From: an uncultured Candidatus Saccharibacteria bacterium
GTDB taxonomy: Bacteria; Patescibacteriota; Minisyncoccia; Minisyncoccales; UBA1441
Direction: 5' to 3'
DNA length: 50,434 bases
NCBI GenBank assembly: GCA_964572275.1
Contig: CAZNED010000003.1
Coordinates: 1 to 50,434 of the forward strand
The notes below the pieces were generated by a model, which was not told where the DNA came from, ran no database searches, and saw only the letters and a list, made by a program, of their open reading frames with translations. Shown piece by piece: positions 5,762 through 50,434 of this stretch; within the stretch, counting starts at the first letter, position 1; each line of letters opens with the position of its first letter. The translations under genes and the position numbers were made by a program.

Positions 5762-8700
5762 TCAAGATTCTATCGATAAATATAATTCTCTCTCGCCTAA
5801 AATAATTTTTTTAAATTCAGACAGATCGTCATTGGTCAGGCGCTGAATTTTTTGAGCTCTGTTTTCTTTTTCAATCGAACCTCTATTCTCTTCAATCAAT
5901 TTGGCTAATTCATCTGATCCCTGATAGTAAACACTGATCTGATCTTGCGGAGTCAACCCAGATTCTTTACGCATGGATTGAATGGCACGGATTATTTCCC
6001 TTATTGATCCCTCTGCTTCCAACTCTGGCGTTAATTGGATAGATAGGGCGACTGATAAGTCATTTTCTTCAATCGTAATCCAATCTTCTGATTCTGGTAA
6101 AGAATCAACAAATTGCACTTTCTTAACATTAACCTCATCTATGACTAACTCTTCTAATTGCTGATTATCGAACGGCTTTCCTTTAATTTGTAATTCCGAC
6201 AATGGTTGACGAACCTTATAACCGGCTTTGGCGCGTGCTTGTAGAACCAAACGAACTATCTCTCGAATTCGCGCCATTTCTTTTTCTAATGGTTCATTGA
6301 TTAAATCTTCTTTAACTTCGAAATAATCAATTAAATGAATTGATTCCGGTTGGTCTTTATGACGTAATGATTGATATGATTTTTCGGCGATAAAGGGAGT
6401 AAAAGGTGCAATTAGTCGGCTGGTTTCAAGTAAAACCATTCTTAATACAGCGGCGGCTTTATCTGTTTCCGGACCATAATTCTGTAATCTGGGACGAGAT
6501 CGGCGAACATACCAGTTTGAGAGATCGTCTATCAAATCTAAAAACAATCGAGCCGCTTTATCAACATGATATTTATCCATTTCATTAATAACTGCCTGGC
6601 CTACCTTATGAATGCGAGAAATTATCCATTGATCTAATAAATTATCGCTCCCAATTTCCTGAACCGGAGATTCTTCTTTTGGAGCATAAGTTAAATAAAA
6701 CTGAACGCAATTATCTAAAGTGCTGATAACCTTTTGAGCCACCTCTCTGATCTTTATCTCATCGATAACATAATTTCCACCTAGAGAAGATCTACTTAAG
6801 AAATAAAATCTCAAAGCATCCGCCCCATGTTTATCAAGAATTTCTGTCGGTGGAGTATAATTAGCCAAATGCTTGGATAATTTTTCACCTGTTTCCGTTA
6901 AGATCAATCCATGAGCCACAGCATTTTTAAAAGCCGGCTTATTCTTTCCCAGTCCAATATCTTCTAGCGTTAAAGCTGTCGCTAGAACATGTAGTGTATA
7001 AAACCAACCTCTCGTTTGCTCTAGTGCCTCAGTAATAAAATCAGCTGGAAAAGATGCCTTAGTTTCTTCTCGATTCTCGAAAGGAAAATGATTCTGCGCA
7101 TAAGGCATGGCTCCCGATTCATACCAGCAATCAAAGACCTCTTCTATGCGTTTCATCTTTTTACCGTCTTCTGAATAAAAAACCACCTCATCGATATAGG
7201 GGCGATGGAAATCAATCCTGCCTTCATTGTTTATGGGCATGGGAATGAATTTCATTTCTCTGATTTCACTCAAGTTCAACCCTAATTCTTGCCGACGCAC
7301 CGCATGTTCTTTATCAGTCAAGCCAAGGCAAGCAGACTGAAGAGCCCGTAAAACTCCTCGATGGCTAATAATTAAAATATTTTTATTTTGACATTGCCCA
7401 TCTTGCTTCTTAATAAAATCATAAATTCTTTTCTTAAGTTCCAAGCCGGTCTCTCCGCCTTCTGGGGAATGTGTTAAATAATCTTCAGGAGAATTGAATG
7501 CCTTTCGATACACTTCTTCTTTTTGTTCATTGGCTACTCCGAACTTCCTTTCACCCAGCTCTTTAAAAAATTCAGGTTTAATGTTTAGCGCCTCGCCCGC
7601 GATCTCAGCTGTTTCTTTTGTGCGCAAAGTGGGGGAAGCCCAAATGGCATCAATCTTTAAATCTTTCAATTTTGAAATTGATTCTTCCACCTGCTTGCGG
7701 CCCGTTTCAGTTAGCGGATAACCTGTCTCGCTATCAACCAGTAATTTTTTGACATTGTTTTCAGCTTCACCATGGCGCATCAGCCAATAATGATTGTCGC
7801 TAAACTTCTGGTTCATTAAATCCTCTCTTGAACCGATAACTTTTATATCTCCGGATTCCGATACCCAGACTGGCAGGGGTGCTCCCCAATAACGATTACG
7901 CGAAACAGCCCAATCCCGAGCTCCTTCCAGCCATTTCCCGAAACGTCCCTTTTTCAAATGCCCCGGAACCCAATTAATCTGTTCATTATTAGCGACCAGT
8001 TGATCCCTGAATTTTTCAACCGCGATATACCAGCTTGTAATCGGATAATAAATTAAACGCTCATCGCAACGCCAACAGAAAGGATAACTATGCTTGATTT
8101 TCATCTTCTGATAGAGTAATCCTTTCTTCTCCAAATCAATTAAAACATCACCATCTGCCTCCCAGACTAATTTTCCTTGGCCCGGCAGATTATGGCCTGT
8201 TAATACCCGACCTTCTAAATCAACAGTTATCTTTAAAGGTAAATCTTTTTCTTTTGCCACTTCCATATCTTCCAAGCCAAAAGCGGCTAGATGTACCAAG
8301 CCGGTTCCTTCTTCCATGGAAACAAAATCAGCTGAAACAATTTGATAATCACGACCATTGCTCGGTTCCATAGGATAGATCGCCTCGTATTTCTGTCCTA
8401 GTAAAGTTTCGCCTTTGAATCTTTCTATTTCCTCGTATTCTCCACTCAAAACAGATAATCTTTCTGCGGCTAAAATCAGGAATTGCTTGCCTTGCTTAAC
8501 TTTAACGTATTCGGCATCTATATTAATAGCCAAGGCAAAATTAGCCGGCAAGGTCCAAGGCGTTGTTGTCCAAACTAATAAAAAGGTATCTTCGTCTAAA
8601 GGAAATTTAACAAAAATTGATGTATCTTCGATGTCGCGATAAGCCCCGGGCTGATTTAACTCAAAATTAGATAATGGTGTCCCACAGCGAGGACAATAAG

Positions 8701-9238
8701 GACTGGTGCGATATGCCTGATAGATTAATTCTTTGTCATACAAATATTTAAAAATCCACCAAATGCTTTCGGTATAAAGGGGGTCAATTGTTGCATAATA
8801 ATTTTCATAATCGGCCCAGCGGCCCATTCTCTTAAGAATTCTTTCGAATTCCGGAAGGCAGCGGAAAACCAAACTACTGCAAGTTTCATTGAATTTATCG
8901 ATCCCGAGTTTTTCAATATCCGCTTTATTTTTTTGTTTTAATTCTTTTTCTGCCAGATTCTCCAATGGTAAACCATGGCAATCCCAACCAACACGACGAG
9001 GAACGTAGTTTCCCCTCATAGTCCGATAACGCAAAACAACATCTTTAATAGTTGAAGGAAGCAAATTACCATAATGGGGTTGGCCCGTAGCAAAGGGAGG
9101 CCCATCGTAAAAAGAAAAGAAGGGGGATCCCTCTCTTTGGATTAAGCTCTTTTGGAAAATATTCTCCGATTCCCAGAATTTCAAAATCTCTTTTTCAGAA
9201 CGAACTGTTGAGTTTTCTTCGTTTGGTTGATTCATCAC
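5762..9238 (-). CDS. ileS: isoleucine--tRNA ligase (type 2) with an inserted histidine-phosphatase domain
   Basis: 1158 aa. IleRS segments seen: PPFATGQPHYGN (HIGH-type motif), GWDCHGLP, TTTPWTLPAN, DWAVSRNRYWGAPLPVW, FHRPYIDE, CWYESGAMPYAQ and a KMSKS-type KLSKH. Residues ~482-672 are an extra RHG...SH histidine-phosphatase module (see findings). Confidence 0.9.
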   Translation of the reverse strand: MMNQPNEENSTVRSEKEILKFWESENIFQKSLIQREGSPFFSFYDGPPFATGQPHYGNLLPSTIKDVVLRYRTMRGNYVPRRVGWDCHGLPLENLAEKELKQKNKADIEKLGIDKFNETCSSLVFRCLPEFERILKRMGRWADYENYYATIDPLYTESIWWIFKYLYDKELIYQAYRTSPYCPRCGTPLSNFELNQPGAYRDIEDTSIFVKFPLDEDTFLLVWTTTPWTLPANFALAINIDAEYVKVKQGKQFLILAAERLSVLSGEYEEIERFKGETLLGQKYEAIYPMEPSNGRDYQIVSADFVSMEEGTGLVHLAAFGLEDMEVAKEKDLPLKITVDLEGRVLTGHNLPGQGKLVWEADGDVLIDLEKKGLLYQKMKIKHSYPFCWRCDERLIYYPITSWYIAVEKFRDQLVANNEQINWVPGHLKKGRFGKWLEGARDWAVSRNRYWGAPLPVWVSESGDIKVIGSREDLMNQKFSDNHYWLMRHGEAENNVKKLLVDSETGYPLTETGRKQVEESISKLKDLKIDAIWASPTLRTKETAEIAGEALNIKPEFFKELGERKFGVANEQKEEVYRKAFNSPEDYLTHSPEGGETGLELKKRIYDFIKKQDGQCQNKNILIISHRGVLRALQSACLGLTDKEHAVRRQELGLNLSEIREMKFIPMPINNEGRIDFHRPYIDEVVFYSEDGKKMKRIEEVFDCWYESGAMPYAQNHFPFENREETKASFPADFITEALEQTRGWFYTLHVLATALTLEDIGLGKNKPAFKNAVAHGLILTETGEKLSKHLANYTPPTEILDKHGADALRFYFLSRSSLGGNYVIDEIKIREVAQKVISTLDNCVQFYLTYAPKEESPVQEIGSDNLLDQWIISRIHKVGQAVINEMDKYHVDKAARLFLDLIDDLSNWYVRRSRPRLQNYGPETDKAAAVLRMVLLETSRLIAPFTPFIAEKSYQSLRHKDQPESIHLIDYFEVKEDLINEPLEKEMARIREIVRLVLQARAKAGYKVRQPLSELQIKGKPFDNQQLEELVIDEVNVKKVQFVDSLPESEDWITIEENDLSVALSIQLTPELEAEGSIREIIRAIQSMRKESGLTPQDQISVYYQGSDELAKLIEENRGSIEKENRAQKIQRLTNDDLSEFKKIILGERELYLSIES

Positions 9239-10821
9239 ATTTTATCAGGAGCACTGATGCCCATGAGCGACAATGCTTCCTTCAATATTTTTTTAACTGT
9301 TTTTAATAATACTAAACGGGCTCGCTGCTCTTCCCCTTTAGATCCAATTACCGGACAATCTCTGTAAAATTGATGCAATGCCGATGCTAAACGATAAATA
9401 TATTGAGGCAATTGATGAACTTCATAATTTTCAGCAATTATTGAAATCACTTCAGGATAATTAAGCATGCTTGCGATCAAATTCAATTCGCTTGGATGAT
9501 TGAAGATAAAATCGGTTTGTTGGTCTATTTTGTCTTCATTTATATTCAGTTTGGTTAAAATACTTTGGATTCTGGCATGCGCATATTGAATGTAATAAAC
9601 CGGATTATCAGCTGATTTTTTAACAGCCAGATCAAAGTCAAAATTCAAATGAGAATTAAGACTTCTTTCTAAGAAGAAATAGCGAACGGCATCTAGCCCA
9701 ACTTCATCAACTAATTCAGCAATAGTAATATATTCTCCTCGACGCTTAGAGATCGTCACTTCTTGCCCATCTCTTATTACTTTGACCCACTGAGCGATCA
9801 ATATTTTTAATTTCTTCGATTCATGCCCCAAAGCATTCAATCCCTGGATCAGTGGTTGAATATGGCCCTGATGATCGGCCCCCCAAATATCTATCATTAG
9901 ATCAAACCCTCTCTCGAATTTATTGCGATGATAAGCAAGATCTGTCATTAAATAAGTCATCTCGCCCGTAGCTTTAACAAGCACCCTGTTTTTATCATCG
10001 CCAAATTCAGTCGTTTTTAACCAAAGCGCCCCCTCCTTTTCTTCAGTCAGTTTCTTGTTTTTTAATTCCACTAATACTTTTTCAACTAACTTGTCTCGAT
10101 AAAGCGTTCTTTCTGAAAACCAAACATCAAATTTTAATCCTATTTTTTCAACATCCGGTCTGATCATTGTCTCTAAGATATGATCAGCTGCTTTTTGTCC
10201 GGCTTCAATCGGATTATCGGCTTTTATTAATTGGCGCAATTCTTCAATATAATCACCCTGATAAGAGGCTTCCGGGTAATTTAATACTGATTCTCCTAGG
10301 CGCTGAACCTGATAACCAGCATCATTAATATAATATTCTTTCACGATCGTATGCCCTACCCTTTTCATAATATTCCCTAAAACATCTCCCAGGAAACCGC
10401 CTCTTCCATTGCCTAAAGTCAATGGACCGGTAGGGTTAGCTGAAACAAATTCTATTTGAATCTTTTGCGGATTCGGAGATTCTATCTGTTTATTCAATTC
10501 TCTAACCATATTCTGCCATTCTCGGCAAAGCAGTTCTGGGTCTAGATAAAAATTAACGAATCCCGGAGCAACAGCTTTAACTTCAAAATCATTGCTTAAG
10601 ATTTTACACAAACCCTGAGCTGTTTCCATTGGATCTTTGCCTATTTTTTTAGCTAAAACCATAGCCACATTCGTAGCATAATGACCATATTCCTGTTTTT
10701 CAGAAGCATAAACCTGCCAATTAACATCTTCAGGCCAATTCAGGGTATTTATTGCCTTCTCTATTTTTTCGACTATTTTCCCGATAGTTGTTTTCTTCAT
10801 AACAATGCCATATTTTAGCAT
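9235..10821 (-). CDS. argS: arginine--tRNA ligase
   Basis: 528 aa. Seen: SANPTGPLTLGNGRGG, YYINDAGYQV, DIWGADHQGH, and a C-terminal DALR-type anticodon-binding region (YIQYAHARI). The start could instead be the ATG at 10800 (MKKTTIG). Confidence 0.9.
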   Translation of the reverse strand: MLKYGIVMKKTTIGKIVEKIEKAINTLNWPEDVNWQVYASEKQEYGHYATNVAMVLAKKIGKDPMETAQGLCKILSNDFEVKAVAPGFVNFYLDPELLCREWQNMVRELNKQIESPNPQKIQIEFVSANPTGPLTLGNGRGGFLGDVLGNIMKRVGHTIVKEYYINDAGYQVQRLGESVLNYPEASYQGDYIEELRQLIKADNPIEAGQKAADHILETMIRPDVEKIGLKFDVWFSERTLYRDKLVEKVLVELKNKKLTEEKEGALWLKTTEFGDDKNRVLVKATGEMTYLMTDLAYHRNKFERGFDLMIDIWGADHQGHIQPLIQGLNALGHESKKLKILIAQWVKVIRDGQEVTISKRRGEYITIAELVDEVGLDAVRYFFLERSLNSHLNFDFDLAVKKSADNPVYYIQYAHARIQSILTKLNINEDKIDQQTDFIFNHPSELNLIASMLNYPEVISIIAENYEVHQLPQYIYRLASALHQFYRDCPVIGSKGEEQRARLVLLKTVKKILKEALSLMGISAPDKM

Positions 10822-10837
10822 TTTTGTTGATAGTTAC

Positions 10838-10897
10838 CAAAAACAAAGAGGCCTCCTGAACCGATTCAACCGACGTTCGGTTATCAGTCCAGGAGGC
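10838..10897 (-). terminator. rho-independent terminator after dcd (minus strand)
   Basis: GCCTCCTG (10851-10858) pairs with CAGGAGGC (10890-10897). An inner AACCGA/TCGGTT stem is present. On the minus strand a T-rich run follows (CTCTTTGTTTTTGG). Confidence 0.6.
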
Positions 10898-10952
10898 ACG
10901 ATATCTTTCCCTTTAGTCGTAGACAGAATACTGCTACAACCTTAGGCGAGGC

Positions 10953-11510
10953 TTATCTTGGAAGTGTAACTCCCTGTTGGTTCTGGTACTCGCCACCCGC
11001 TTCCTTCTCGGAGTATGTACGCTCAGGACGTTCTCCTCGAAAGAAAACAACCTGAGCGATCCCTTGACCGACATGAAGACGAATAGGTAATGGGGAGACG
11101 TTAGCCAGTTCGATCGTGAGAATACCGCGCCACCCGGGTTCAAGCGGAGTTACGTTGACCAGAAGACCGCAGCGTGCGTAGGAGCTCTTACCCCAACACA
11201 CACCGCAAACATCATCGGGCATGACGAAGCATTCGACTGATTCGGCCAAGACCTGTGAATTGGGTGATAGCTCGAATACGCTCGTCGCTTCAATCTGCCG
11301 GAAATGCCCTTCTGGAAAATCGATGGGATCGAGTACCACGTTCATCCCGCCCAAGGGCACCAAGAATCTGTGCCCCAGGCGAAGATCATAGCCATAGCTA
11401 CTCAACCCATACGACGGTCGGCCTTTTTGTGTCGAGACAAAAGGAACGAGCATTCCTTTTTTGCCACGGCACAATGCCTTGATTTCATGGTCGCTTAGGA
11501 TTCCGAACAT
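10953..11510 (-). CDS. dcd: dCTP deaminase (dUTPase-superfamily trimer type)
   Basis: Translation from the ATG at 11510 reads MFGILSDHEIKAL...SYGYDLRLG...GKSSYARCGLLVNVTPLEPGWRGILTIELANVSPLP...GEYQNQQG, which matches Dcd hallmarks. GGAGG lies 4 nt upstream and there is a TAATG stop/start overlap with the upstream gene. I trimmed the ORF-track start at 11585 as an extension. Confidence 0.85.
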   Translation of the reverse strand: MFGILSDHEIKALCRGKKGMLVPFVSTQKGRPSYGLSSYGYDLRLGHRFLVPLGGMNVVLDPIDFPEGHFRQIEATSVFELSPNSQVLAESVECFVMPDDVCGVCWGKSSYARCGLLVNVTPLEPGWRGILTIELANVSPLPIRLHVGQGIAQVVFFRGERPERTYSEKEAGGEYQNQQGVTLPR

Positions 11511-12043
11511 TAGACCTCCGTTTCTTTCTCCAATAGTTCTGGGTGGGCTACCAGGGCAAGCACATCCTTGACGAAGATCGACCACTCAGGCAGTCGATGA
11601 TTCCTGCGCTGACGAATGATCCGTTGCAGTGACATGTAATTCAGGCAGACAATTCGCCTTTGCAGGAATGACTCCGGAAGGTCCCACTTCACCTGATCCC
11701 ATGCCCTCTGCTCGATCAGCCTGTTCAGATGCGCCAGATGTTCCACCGGGATCTCGTGAGCGAAATCCTCTTGAACAAGCAAGCGCGCTGTGATGGTGTG
11801 CATCGTGGACTCGCTCTGCTTGGTCACGCCGACGCGATACGTGTCAAACTGCTGCCAGAAGTAGCGCGGGGCGGTCATGTCCAACCAGATCATGATCGAC
11901 TCAAGAAACTTGTTGTGCCCATCGCCCATGAAACAGAGACGCCGGGCTACCGATTCCATCTTCTCTGGATCTTGTTTGTACGAGAGAGACAACCCCAAAA
12001 GAGCCATCTCGTACCCGCACTCTCTCATCATGAGAGTTTTCAT
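11510..12043 (-). CDS. short ThyX-fold (Thy1 family-like) protein with a degenerate ThyX motif
   Basis: 177 aa. GHNKFLESIMIWLDMTAPRYFWQQFDTYRVGVTKQSES aligns by eye to the ThyX core (GH..P.EH..F.F.+...P..V.RQ..RHR.......S). RRNHRLPEW resembles the ThyX C-terminal R..SHAQWE segment. A strong SD (AAAGGAGGG) lies 5 nt before the ATG. Confidence 0.55.
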   Translation of the reverse strand: MKTLMMRECGYEMALLGLSLSYKQDPEKMESVARRLCFMGDGHNKFLESIMIWLDMTAPRYFWQQFDTYRVGVTKQSESTMHTITARLLVQEDFAHEIPVEHLAHLNRLIEQRAWDQVKWDLPESFLQRRIVCLNYMSLQRIIRQRRNHRLPEWSIFVKDVLALVAHPELLEKETEV

Positions 12044-12084
12044 TGAAGCCCTCCTTTCTCGGTTTATTCAGATAAGCCCTTCTC

Positions 12085-12140
12085 GATTGAGACGGGTTTT
12101 CAGATATCAATTGTTTGGTATCCAAAAACCTGTCTCAATC
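12085..12140. repeat. 16-bp inverted repeat (one G/A difference) with a 24-nt spacer, in the leader/promoter region of the ThyX-like gene
   Basis: GATTGAGACGGGTTTT (12085-12100) faces AAAACCTGTCTCAATC (12125-12140). The spacer contains the GATATC and CAATTG palindromes. Confidence 0.8.
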
Positions 12141-12234
12141 AGAAACAATTTACAAGAACTAAACTAACAAACTATTATATATATGATCAATTAAGTCAAG
12201 AAATTCTTCTGTTAAAAATGCTACAATTGAAAAG

Positions 12235-12681
12235 ATGCAAATAGCAAAGAATAAAAAGGCATTTTTTGATTACGAAATCCTAGAAACTCTAGAAACTGGG
12301 ATAGTTTTAAGTGGAGCCGAAACTAAATCCTCAAAAATGGGACAAGTTAGCTTGAGAGGAGCTTACGTCATTAATATAAACAATCTTCTTTATTTAACCG
12401 GAGCCCATATTTCTCCGTACCAACCGGCTAATCAGCCAGTTGATTATAATCCGACTCGACCGCGCTCTCTTTTACTCAAGAAAAAAGAATTAAAATACTT
12501 TCTCGGGAAATTGAAAGAAAAGGGCTTGACGCTTATCCCTCTAAGAATGTATACTAAGCAGAACTTAGTTAAACTAGAAATTGGTTTAGCTAAGGGAAAA
12601 AAGAAATACGACAAACGCGAGCAGATTAAAAAACGCGAAGATAATCGTCGCATAGGTAGATCTTTAAAAGGTGATGAATAA
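12235..12681 (+). CDS. smpB: SsrA-binding protein SmpB
   Basis: 148 aa. KNKKAFFDYEILETLETGIVLSGAETKS and a basic C-terminal tail. It lies immediately upstream of the tmRNA. Confidence 0.9.
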   Translation: MQIAKNKKAFFDYEILETLETGIVLSGAETKSSKMGQVSLRGAYVININNLLYLTGAHISPYQPANQPVDYNPTRPRSLLLKKKELKYFLGKLKEKGLTLIPLRMYTKQNLVKLEIGLAKGKKKYDKREQIKKREDNRRIGRSLKGDE

Positions 12682-12687
12682 ATACGT

Positions 12688-12977
12688 GGGGACGCATGGC
12701 TTCGATAGAAGCTTGAATCAAGTGGTGCAGATTAAGGTGTCGAGTCCTTATTAAACTTTCGACAAAGTACAAGTGTCAACACACTTCGGGGTTTAACCCC
12801 CGCTTACGCTTACGCCTGATATTCTCAGAGTAAGCTTTCATAGTTTTTTGCCCCCATTCGTGGGGGAATCGTTTCAGAGGAACAACTGTTCCTTTTAGAC
12901 TCTTGCAAAAGGGCTAAGTCTGTAGAAGCTACTTGTATTCGTCCTTCTAGACGTGGGTTCGATTCCCACCGTCTCCA
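12688..12977 (+). ncRNA. ssrA: tmRNA (ssrA)
   Basis: The 5' end GGGGACGCATGGCTTCGA pairs with the 3' acceptor CGTCTCC followed by discriminator A. A canonical T-arm GTGGGTTCGATTCCCAC is present. An internal tag frame ends ...TPAYAYA-TGA (stop at 12817-12819). CCA is not encoded. Confidence 0.8.
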
Positions 12978-48653: not shown

Positions 48654-48684
48654 AAAACGGCCATACAATTAGCCGTCTTTTTTA
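48654..48684 (+). terminator. rho-independent terminator, probably bidirectional
   Basis: ACGGC (48657-48661), 10-nt loop, GCCGT (48672-48676), then CTTTTTT. An A-run on the 5' side serves the convergent gene. Confidence 0.6.
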
Positions 48685-50434
48685 TAACAAATATCCTTTA
48701 AAAATCAGATAAGCCAAAACTCCTAATCCAATAATCAATAGAATTATCAAAATTCGAGCAACAAGTTTCTGACTACGATCTGGGCTTTGAGGCATCGGGC
48801 GAAAAATTATACCTTCCTGAACCTGGGTTTCTAGTGGATTATTAGGAACTTGAAAATTTCCCTCACCGCGTACTCTTTGTAAAAATTTCTCTCTATCTAT
48901 TTCTTCTCGTGCGGATGAACTCATTAATTGATTAATAAAAACATCGCGAGCGGTTTGTGGTTTTTTTACGACTGGTTCCTCTATAGATTGAACTTTCTCT
49001 TCAGACATTGGTAGCGGAGTTTTCGGAAGAGAGCTTTGTCTTATCTTCTCAATCTCAGCTTGTTTTTCTTCCATAGCCTTGCGTTGTTCAATCATTTCTT
49101 CTTCAAGTTTTTCCCTGGCTTCTTTCTTTTTAGTATCAATTTCATCAGTGACAGGAGCTCTTTTTTCAGAGACGGATGATTGAGGCGTTGAAGGAACAGG
49201 TCTAGGTTGAATTGTTTCAGATGCTATAGTTTCTTTTAAAGTTTGATGTTCTTGATCGTGATCATCATCTTTCTTTTGAATGACATCATTTTTTTCAGTT
49301 TTTTCATCTTCAGAAAGAACGCTTTCTAAGGGCTGTGATTCAGAAATAAAAACATCTTCTTCTAATTGGAATGATGTTTTTTCAAATTTCTGGCTTTGAG
49401 CTTCTTGTTTTTTTTGCGCACGTTCATCCAGTTTTTCTCTGCCACGACTTACGCCATAAGCGATCAAAACATCAATCTCTCTTAATTTCTTATAAAGATC
49501 TCTCTCTTCATTTATAATCATCTGATGGGGAACGACAGCATGTTTATATTGATCGCGCAAGGCAATAGCCTTCTGTTCGACCTGCCATCGTTTTTTCTCA
49601 ATTCGTTCTCTTTCTTTTTCAATATTCCATCTTTGTTCAGTCAATTTCTTCTTCTCATCACTACTAATAGTAGCTTTAATCTGTCTCTTCAATTCAGCTT
49701 CTTTTCTCTCAACAATTTTTTCTTCTCTCAAAATTGGCTGTAATTCAGAACGTAAATCAGTTTTCTGCGCCTCTAATTTTTCGATAAGGCGCAACGGTTT
49801 TTCTTTAGCTAAATCCAGTTCAATGAGCTTTTGTTTAATTTGAACTTTTTTCTGGCCGAGTAGGATTTCTTCTTTCTCAAGATTAAGATCTCGAAGGCGC
49901 GACTCCAGTTTGTTTTTCTGTCCCTGCAAACCAGAAGCACTTGATTCAATTCGATTTAAGGCAGTATTAATTTCAGCCAATTCATCTTTTTTAACCCATT
50001 TTTCCTGTTCTACTTCTCTTTGTCGATTAGCTAATTGCCAGCGTTTTTCTTCATATCTTCTTCTTTCTTCGCTAGAACGAGCTTTATTTTCTAATTGCTC
50101 AATATTATTTCGGGTACGCTCTATCTCTTCAAGCCGATTCAATAATTTCTGATATTCCTTCTCCGACTGATTCTTTTGACCCTCAATCTTTTTCTTTTCT
50201 GGTAAAATTAATTTTTCTTGAGCAGGGAACTCTTTTAATTGTAATTGCAATAATTCAATCTCATGTTCTTTCTGGGCTAATAACTCAGAAGTTTTATCGA
50301 GATCGTCAATATCGCTGAAGATATGCCAAGTTTGGGCGGCTGTTTCTGCTTCTGCCAGAATCTTTTCCCAATGAACTCTTTCAGCTTTCTGACGAGCTTC
50401 TTCTTCTAATTTCTTTCTTTCAGCTTCAGCTTTC
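48682..50434 (-). CDS. tail-anchored, highly charged coiled-coil protein, 5' end beyond the window
   Basis: The track ORF begins at an internal TTG (50250). The same frame has no stop up to nt 50434 (...KAEAERKKLEEEARQKAERVHWEKILAEAETAAQTWHIF...). A C-terminal TM is present (LVARILIILLIIGLGVLAYLIF). Confidence 0.6.
   Translation of the reverse strand, partial: KAEAERKKLEEEARQKAERVHWEKILAEAETAAQTWHIFSDIDDLDKTSELLAQKEHEIELLQLQLKEFPAQEKLILPEKKKIEGQKNQSEKEYQKLLNRLEEIERTRNNIEQLENKARSSEERRRYEEKRWQLANRQREVEQEKWVKKDELAEINTALNRIESSASGLQGQKNKLESRLRDLNLEKEEILLGQKKVQIKQKLIELDLAKEKPLRLIEKLEAQKTDLRSELQPILREEKIVERKEAELKRQIKATISSDEKKKLTEQRWNIEKERERIEKKRWQVEQKAIALRDQYKHAVVPHQMIINEERDLYKKLREIDVLIAYGVSRGREKLDERAQKKQEAQSQKFEKTSFQLEEDVFISESQPLESVLSEDEKTEKNDVIQKKDDDHDQEHQTLKETIASETIQPRPVPSTPQSSVSEKRAPVTDEIDTKKKEAREKLEEEMIEQRKAMEEKQAEIEKIRQSSLPKTPLPMSEEKVQSIEEPVVKKPQTARDVFINQLMSSSAREEIDREKFLQRVRGEGNFQVPNNPLETQVQEGIIFRPMPQSPDRSQKLVARILIILLIIGLGVLAYLIFKGYLL

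Follow-up and report, generated by a model that had tools for sequence, protein, structure and literature searches.

The non-orthologous displacement of the thymidylate synthase ThyA by ThyX was reportedly described by Myllykallio et al. in 2002. The locus considered here lies in a window of 50,434 nucleotides (the whole stretch of DNA analysed; contig CAZNED010000003.1 of assembly GCA_964572275.1, positions 1 to 50,434, forward strand) from an uncultured Candidatus Saccharibacteria bacterium, whose genome assembly comprises 470,812 bp in 15 contigs and is 92% complete. It is a GC-rich island of two genes, dcd (dCTP deaminase) and a gene for a protein of the ThyX fold (hereafter the ThyX-like gene), situated between argS and smpB. 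Horizontal acquisition of thyA has been described in Patescibacteria, and synthesis of deoxythymidine monophosphate (dTMP) is part of the minimal repertoire of the candidate phyla radiation (CPR) (PMC12455944). Since horizontal receipt of thyA by these bacteria is published, the island belongs to a known kind of event: as in the published case, a CPR genome has gained a putative dTMP-synthesis gene from an unrelated, co-occurring phylum. It differs in that the incoming gene is a non-canonical, ThyX-like one coupled to dcd, in that the donor operon and the empty site can both be defined, and in that the canonical gene is missing, which indicates displacement. We consider it likely that the island is a segment of approximately 1.25 kb from the Bipolaricaulota and represents an old xenologous replacement of the canonical module in a CPR genus.

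An original prediction, made from the sequence alone, had described a sharply bounded GC-rich island on the basis of hand counts of four 60-nt lines (34/60 and 37/60 G+C inside, 20/60 and 19/60 outside). All four counts were exact on recount, and the island was borne out by sliding G+C, by G+C at third codon positions (GC3) and by the tetranucleotide profile. The G+C content is 0.523 for positions 10848-12100 against 0.381 for the rest of the window. In 200-nt windows it is 0.36-0.39 within argS, 0.45-0.575 over the stretch of 10.8-12.1 kb and 0.275 ahead of smpB; elsewhere in the window it ranges between 0.33 and 0.43, and no other 1-kb window exceeds 0.43. The genome-wide maximum among 1830 1-kb windows (mean 0.381, standard deviation 0.032) is 0.529, at C3:11001. 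The tetranucleotide distance of the island from the genome (z = 5.3) places it in the top three of 1815 windows, and its dinucleotide delta* ranks 49 of 1815. Among the 418 crudely called open reading frames (ORFs) of the genome (mean GC3 0.32, standard deviation 0.06), the ThyX-like gene ranks second with a GC3 of 0.70 and dcd eighth with 0.53. The excess of G+C therefore sits at synonymous sites and is not explained by amino acid content; an atypical composition that extends to synonymous sites is a recognised mark of a horizontally acquired islet. Long antisense ORFs of 64-105 amino acids, also predicted, are present over the island. The parts of the locus are as follows.

9235 to 10821, minus strand: argS, the left flank, an ORF of native composition (G+C 0.37, GC3 0.31) whose start faces the island
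10836 to 10897, minus strand: intrinsic terminator downstream of dcd, a hairpin (GCCUCCUG...CAGGAGGC) and then CUCUUUGUUUUUGG (U-run)
10953 to 11510, minus strand: dcd, dCTP deaminase of 185 amino acids (TIGR02274, Pfam DCD)
11510 to 12043, minus strand: gene for a ThyX-fold protein of 177 amino acids, a candidate thymidylate synthase in which T68-Y69-R70 replaces RHR
11515 to 11519, minus strand: GGAGG ahead of the dcd start, within the 3' end of the ThyX-like gene
12049 to 12057, minus strand: AAAGGAGGG, 5 nt ahead of the ThyX-like start
12085 to 12140, minus strand: 5' leader hairpin, the inverted repeat of the original prediction (I1; 26-nt arms, 85% complementary)
12171 to 12199, minus strand: promoter-like TTGACT-17-AATAGT for the island operon, from a consensus scan only, in AT-rich sequence
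12235 to 12681, plus strand: smpB, the right flank, an ORF of native composition divergent from argS

The sharp edges of composition could be taken to mean an assembly or binning artefact, in which a Bipolaricaulota fragment had been fused into a CPR contig, and the contig of a second species of the genus (G001, hereafter the congener) ends only 153 bp past the island. Two European Nucleotide Archive assemblies from other samples, however, contain gapless contigs over positions 8270-12873 (99.87% identity) and 9734-12211 (99.92%) with the gene order smpB, ThyX-like, dcd, argS, ileS. The order ileS-argS-dcd-ThyX-like is identical in the congener, and a 131-kb Joint Genome Institute contig of the congener's species covers the entire locus. 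The break in the congener contig is accounted for by a duplicated leader of 102 nt, described below. In addition, the island is at least 15% different from every donor sequence and has an intermediate GC3. The independent assemblies exclude assembly chimerism, and an assembly or binning artefact has, as far as assemblies can show, a negligible probability.

The insertion site can be recognised in relatives. Six genomes, which represent four other genera of the family, have the divergent starts of argS and smpB 61-117 bp apart, as compared with 1434 bp in the window, and the island is therefore an insertion into this spacer. Orthologues of argS in the sister genera are 64-70% identical, with smpB directly adjoining, and the identity of smpB was supported by a Pfam SmpB match on an independent contig. 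The ThyX-like gene occurs in two of 41 related CPR genomes, both of this genus, so that the comparison with sister genomes finds this gene confined to the genus and the spacer empty in the six genomes. Of the marks of a horizontally acquired islet, an empty site together with a conflicting gene tree was found; signs of mobility (integrase, tRNA target, flanking direct repeats) were not. No integrase gene and no tRNA gene lie between argS and smpB, and neither a target-site duplication nor terminal repeats were found at the island, in agreement with what had been noted from the sequence alone. Direct repeats flanking the island reach at most 13 nt, are imperfect, and none was convincing. A 14-nt inverted match between 10812-10825 and 12214-12227 coincides with TGCTAnAAT boxes of argS and smpB.

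The closest homologues of the two proteins (74% identity for the ThyX-like protein, 85% for Dcd) are encoded on contigs whose named members are Bipolaricaulota/Acetothermia. The pair is adjacent in 17 loci of Bipolaricaulota-type metagenome-assembled genomes (MAGs), where the G+C content of the genes (0.51-0.69) matches that of the loci (0.56-0.70). On annotated contigs it forms the end of a pyrK-pyrD-pyrF-pyrE-thyXlike-dcd operon with overlaps of 4 bp. In phylogenetic trees both proteins nest among Bipolaricaulota sequences, and the window and congener sequences are sisters within that radiation with support of 94/84 for the ThyX-like protein and 83/86 for the concatenated pair. A tree of approximately 118 Dcd sequences recovered the same pairing with weak support, and for approximately 118 ThyX-like sequences the tree constrained to the sister pairing had the higher likelihood (p = 0.73 in the approximately unbiased test, p-AU). 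Composition, distribution, operon context and nesting, taken together, show that the transfer ran from Bipolaricaulota to CPR. Acquisition from a high-GC donor, as originally proposed, is thus upheld by the phylogeny, the empty site and the operon context, all of which point to a Bipolaricaulota lineage. A remnant of the donor pyrE upstream of the ThyX-like gene was searched for and gave no significant match; the likeness of CCGAGAAAGGAGGGC to CCGAGAAGGGC was considered as a pyrE leftover and rejected as too short to count.

In the scenario that we propose, the 3' end of the pyrK-pyrD-pyrF-pyrE-thyXlike-dcd operon would have been inserted into the 60-120-bp spacer of the divergent argS and smpB in an ancestor of the genus, before the two sampled species split. 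The segment, with a terminator of its own, would afterwards have gained a local AT-rich promoter and a leader hairpin. The island represents a well-documented case of transfer, in which the donor operon is defined along with the place of insertion, the empty site and the age relative to speciation.

The original prediction had regarded the acquisition as recent, a dating that comparison with the congener does not support. The insertion site is common to both species, and identities between them are 75.8% for IleRS and 69.9% for ArgRS, as compared with 77.8% for Dcd and 71.6% for the ThyX-like protein. Non-synonymous divergence (dN) is 0.16-0.22 for ileS, argS, dcd and the ThyX-like gene, and the proportion of synonymous differences (pS) is at least 0.74, that is, saturated. 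Island and flanking genes are equally diverged, so the insert is as old as the species split, and purifying selection has continued to act on it. GC3 of the ThyX-like gene and dcd is 0.70 and 0.53 here and 0.48 and 0.38 in the congener, with host values of 0.30-0.34 and donor values of 0.62-0.89, and amelioration is accordingly only partial and is uneven between the two species. Since the insert, no younger than the species split, is still rich in G+C, G+C content is a poor clock, and base composition is unreliable for dating in this genome.

Two observations sit uneasily with one old transfer. For a gene with saturated synonymous divergence from the congener, the ThyX-like gene has a high GC3 (0.70), and support for the sister pair is moderate, with values of 29-86 in the Shimodaira-Hasegawa-like approximate likelihood ratio test. 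Together they leave some room for replacement of the allele at a later time, or for the site having received the pair twice. According to this alternative, the two species would have acquired the pair independently in the same spacer, or the copy of the species considered here would later have been exchanged for a fresher Bipolaricaulota allele. It would account for the closer match of the window Dcd to the best donor-type protein (85%) than to the congener (78%) and for the difference in GC3 between the species; a dense free search with ThyX-like sequences placed the window sequence beside P0002 and that of the congener beside P0103, and the leader and terminator of the two species are alike in architecture and little alike in sequence. 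The same spacer has, moreover, gained a further Bipolaricaulota-type gene, tdk, in the congener's species. Set against these points, insertion site and gene order are identical in both species, the two sequences are sisters in three of four trees with the constrained tree the likelier in the remaining comparison (p-AU 0.73), dN of the island equals that of the flanking genes, and the longer branch of the congener accounts for the asymmetric identities. Repeated transfer is on balance improbable, and a single old transfer is preferred.

The tdk gene, encoding thymidine kinase, lies between smpB and the ThyX-like gene in the congener's species (L069:2906-4000, the counterpart of 12044-12234). 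It has a G+C content of 0.50, a GC3 of 0.46 and a terminator of its own, and is preceded by a copy, 102 nt long and 99% identical, of the promoter and leader hairpin of the ThyX-like gene. This repeat explains why the congener MAG contig breaks at that place. The gene product is 67-74% identical to Bipolaricaulota proteins, and its best match comes from the same genome as the nearest relative of the concatenated pair; thymidine kinases are present in only four of the 41 CPR relatives, at 56% identity or less. Pyrimidine-deoxynucleotide genes have landed more than once in the argS-smpB spacer. The arrival of three genes of the same Bipolaricaulota lineage (tdk, the ThyX-like gene and dcd) in one spacer would be a weak hint, offered with considerable doubt, of Bipolaricaulota as a physical partner or host of the genus.

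Other GC-rich genes occur in the genome. A second sharply bounded, GC-rich single gene is located at C1:23504-24217 (L065:2005-2718, minus strand; G+C 0.55-0.57, flanks 0.32-0.40) and encodes a protein of the Cu-oxidase_4 family, the sole close homologue of which is an 86% identical copy on a 2.7-kb contig, the next being 34% identical. Small GC-rich ORFs in AT-rich flanks were found at C5:3660-4100, C9:8016-8555, C1:10471-10917, C1:91879-92226 and C7:11255-11731 (G+C 0.51-0.59, GC3 0.63-0.72). The ORF at C5:3660-4100 had no match in 81 Bipolaricaulota genomes; neither it nor the Cu-oxidase_4 gene lends further support to a Bipolaricaulota host.

Canonical genes for thymidylate synthesis are common among the relatives of the genus. 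Of 39 other genomes of the family or order, ten encode ThyA, 18 canonical ThyX and 18 dcd; 28 of the 39 have a canonical ThyA or ThyX, as do 15 of the 18 that are positive for dcd, in which the synthase gene often adjoins dcd and glyA. Neither ThyA nor canonical ThyX was found in this genus, that is, in the window genome and the congener. Since most relatives possess a canonical synthase and the genus does not, the island represents displacement of a canonical module and not a first gain, the acquired pair presumably standing in for the canonical dcd/ThyA-or-ThyX(/glyA) module of most relatives. The earlier view of the lineage as one that typically depends on salvage does not hold, given the 28 of 39 relatives with a synthase and the occurrence of thymidine kinase in only four of 41 genomes. 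Of the original interpretation, the horizontal acquisition of a pyrimidine-deoxynucleotide module from a high-GC donor stands, and its recency and the salvage-dependent host fall. In six of the relatives (G016, G030, G032, G037, G039 and G040; e.g. G039:C14:11625-12953) the ThyX frames are 450-550 amino acids long with two Thy1 matches each. These long frames look tandem-duplicated and often have glyA and one or two copies of dcd as neighbours.

For Dcd, TIGR02274 matched at 142.9 bits over residues 4-185, above the equivalog cut-off of 92.8, and Pfam DCD at 100.6 bits. The closest solved structures are 3km3 (E = 1.6e-46) and 4dhk (2.2e-41); the bifunctional DCD-DUT of Mycobacterium tuberculosis (2qxx/4a6a), whose product is dUMP, matches less strongly (E = 1.5e-17), and the two closer structures bear no annotation of the product. 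No dUTPase apart from Dcd was found in the 92% complete genome, and Dcd may thus be bifunctional, or another pyrophosphatase may act in its place. The genome encodes the ribonucleotide reductase NrdD and the kinase Tmk; no ThyA, no canonical ThyX and no thymidine kinase above the cut-off were found in it. With Tmk present and the canonical synthases and thymidine kinase not found, the ThyX-like gene is the only visible source of dTMP. In the proposed pathway, Dcd would deaminate the dCTP supplied by class III ribonucleotide reductase, yielding dUTP or, were the enzyme bifunctional, dUMP in a single step. Methylation of dUMP to dTMP would fall to the ThyX-fold protein, and phosphorylation of dTMP to Tmk. 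The status of sole candidate in a minimal genome amounts to genetic-style evidence for the function of an unstudied ThyX-related family.

A corresponding pattern was seen in the donor phylum. Of 81 genomes, the eight with the ThyX-like gene all lack ThyA and canonical ThyX, as against 51 of the other 73 that have one or the other; the chance of 0/8 is 1.8e-4 assuming independent genomes, which these, being related, are not. Five further donor genomes have the ThyX-like gene without ThyA or canonical ThyX, so that the gene is the only candidate thymidylate synthase in the window genome, the congener and 13 Bipolaricaulota genomes. This recalls the displacement of ThyA by ThyX, in that the presence and absence of the ThyX-like family and of canonical synthases are complementary in two lineages. 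It differs in that the pattern is not universal, two genomes having both, and in that related genomes are not independent observations.

The ThyX-like protein belongs to a large family. An exhaustive search returned 2426 cluster representatives at E ≤ 0.001, of which 1455 remained at E ≤ 1e-10, and the family signature reads APRYWWxQFDTYRxGxxKQSESTMHT ... LPEGFLQRRxVxxNYxxLRNIIxQRxxHRLxEW. Every source name on record for the family is 'hypothetical protein', and no description of it was found in the literature on ThyX paralogues and on thymidylate synthesis in Bipolaricaulota/Acetothermia. The protein matched phrog_6721 ('unknown function') at E = 4.7e-33; it had no match in NCBIfam, and neither island protein had a defence-system match in PADLOC. 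Homologues were present in 25 phage records, all annotated as 'hypothetical' or not at all, of phages infecting Desulfovibrio, Clostridium, Enterocloster, Fusobacterium and C. difficile. The homologue of phage ProddE is located among genes for DNA polymerase, exonuclease, NTP pyrophosphohydrolase, a kinase and NrdDG. Within what was searched, the family was seen in anaerobes and their phages.

The AlphaFold2 model of the protein (pLDDT 96.6, pTM 0.88) adopts the ThyX fold. The top 50 PDB matches in Foldseek were all ThyX, the best being 3n3y of Helicobacter pylori (template modelling score 0.80, E = 8.6e-9, 15-17% identity). The protein thus shares the fold of ThyX/Thy1 (PF02511; Thermotoga maritima TM0449, H. 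pylori 3n3y/3ah5) over the whole model and, like canonical ThyX, adjoins dcd and occurs in phage nucleotide modules. It differs in its length (177 amino acids against approximately 200-250), in its low identity of 15-17%, and in having TYR for RHR, MH for RY and replacements of the Arg, Trp, Arg and His of NFRxWRH. The name 'ThyX-like' given in the original prediction is right for the fold, although the ThyX signature RHR(X)7-8S...S-x-R-Y is not present. Kinship of the family with ThyX rests on the fold and on an hhalign alignment of a 59-member family profile with eight canonical CPR ThyX sequences (probability 68%, E = 4.9e-5), from which the correspondence of residues was read as follows (residue of the ThyX-like protein, canonical counterpart, state).

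H43: the GH histidine, kept
T68-Y69-R70: R-H-R, of which the third Arg alone is kept
E78-S79: E-S of QES, kept
K118: the Arg before LP, basic residue kept
R146: the invariant R173 of the canonical set in the C-terminal helix, kept, with moderate alignment confidence
M81-H82: R-Y, changed, or shifted to R87
M137, L139, Q140 and R141: the Arg, Trp, Arg and His of the second motif (NFRxWRH), changed

Y69, S77, S79 and R146 are invariant among the 59 aligned family members. We take H43 to be equivalent to His53 of the T. maritima enzyme, R146 to Arg174 and the conserved Ser to Ser88. The alignment indicates that the catalytic His has a retained equivalent, as have the Ser, Glu and Arg174 that bind dUMP, the last a C-terminal substrate-binding arginine, and several substrate-side residues survive. 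The changed residues presumably include positions that contact FAD in the T. maritima enzyme.

On this evidence the ThyX-like protein probably acts as a thymidylate synthase whose active site has been rebuilt. A number of observations weigh on the other side. Pfam Thy1 (PF02511) scored 22.2 bits, below its cut-off of 24.8, so that a whole-genome scan with this model misses the gene, and a search against solved ThyX sequences returned nothing with the single sequence and E = 0.21 with the family profile; a different activity is accordingly possible. RHR has become TYR, RY has become MH, and the Arg and His of the second motif have become Met and Arg; the canonical signature is thus lost. No serine hydroxymethyltransferase (SHMT) was found in the genome, which does not settle the matter, as nine relatives that have canonical ThyX are without one too, and ThyX is reported, in the work behind PDB entries 7ndz and 7ndw, to be able to use formaldehyde. 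Two MAGs, one of Fibrobacterota and one of 'Peribacteria', have a family member as well as canonical ThyX, the copy of the latter MAG adjoining an exonuclease, a glucosaminidase and a radical-SAM gene in a phage-like setting. Donors, finally, possess thymidine kinase, which makes the gap in their pathway softer than that in this genome.

A reading in which the transfer is real and the ThyX-fold protein has no role as a thymidylate synthase, catalysing instead another pyrimidine reaction or serving as a nucleotide-binding partner of Dcd, with dTMP obtained by uptake or by an unrecognised route, must therefore be weighed. The replacement of the RHR, RY and second-motif residues by others that are themselves nearly invariant (Y69, M81, H82), the Thy1 score below the cut-off, the two genomes in which a family member is found beside canonical ThyX and the lack of SHMT all speak for it, and a complex of the two proteins could lie behind the close translational coupling with dcd seen in every cellular locus. 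This reading leaves a genome with Tmk and no other source of dTMP, however, and does not explain why absence of canonical synthases tracks presence of the ThyX-like gene in two unrelated lineages, why phage copies without an adjoining dcd occupy the usual thymidylate synthase slot of phages, or why the equivalents of His53, Ser88 and Arg174 are kept. We regard it as rather unlikely and retain the thymidylate synthase as the preferred assignment. A bolder possibility, which we put forward with considerable doubt, is that the family constitutes a third type of working thymidylate synthase, with Tyr-Arg in place of Arg-His-Arg and Met-His in place of Arg-Tyr, and that it may use another reductant or one-carbon donor than canonical ThyX. 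Were this true, the genus would represent a natural complementation, in which a 471-kb genome without ThyA, ThyX or SHMT lives on an imported pair of genes.

A GC-rich terminator on one side of the island and an inverted repeat on the other had been predicted, and both were found. The terminator hairpin occupies 10851-10897 (inverted repeat I4), and the fold of 10822-10952 has a free energy of -54.4 kcal/mol (z = -6.5); the congener has an analogous hairpin and U-run after its dcd. The leader (12044-12150) folds with -37 kcal/mol (z = -4.3), and the congener has a hairpin at the matching position of its leader and a similar TTGACT...TAATAA upstream. Leader and terminator thus have a common architecture and different sequences in the two species. 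Searches of the island flanks with Rfam returned only sub-threshold, miRNA-like matches to the leader hairpin, which were read as chance; no family matched.

The strong Shine-Dalgarno-type motifs and the overlap TAATG, also predicted, are present. The stop codon of the ThyX-like gene and the start of dcd overlap at 11508-11512, and the internal GGAGG before dcd has the same motif as in donors and congener. Donors have a motif similar to AAAGGAGGG within the end of pyrE. In the genome as a whole, approximately 80% of the crudely called ORFs lack any Shine-Dalgarno-like motif, and GGAGG occurs upstream of eight of the 418, the island genes being two of these. At the 3' end of 16S rRNA (C4; L068:1220-1440, minus strand), GUGGAACAAUAUUUAUU follows helix 45 and no CCUCC was found within 180 nt. 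The GGAGG ahead of the island genes has been kept in both species despite the missing CCUCC anti-Shine-Dalgarno. An extended -10-like box, TGCTAnAAT, lies only approximately 8-20 nt before the annotated start of each of the flanking genes argS and smpB (10812-10825 and 12214-12227), a proximity that suggests leaders that are very short or absent.

A second compositional outlier of the window, at 49-50.4 kb, was considered as an island and rejected, as it corresponds to a gene (48682-50433, minus strand) for a Glu/Lys-rich coiled-coil protein of more than 580 amino acids with a C-terminal membrane anchor. No other part of the genome deviates more strongly than this gene in dinucleotide and tetranucleotide composition. 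Next to argS, ileS (5762-9238, minus strand) contains an in-frame His_Phos_1 domain at 7223-7795, which is present in the congener too.

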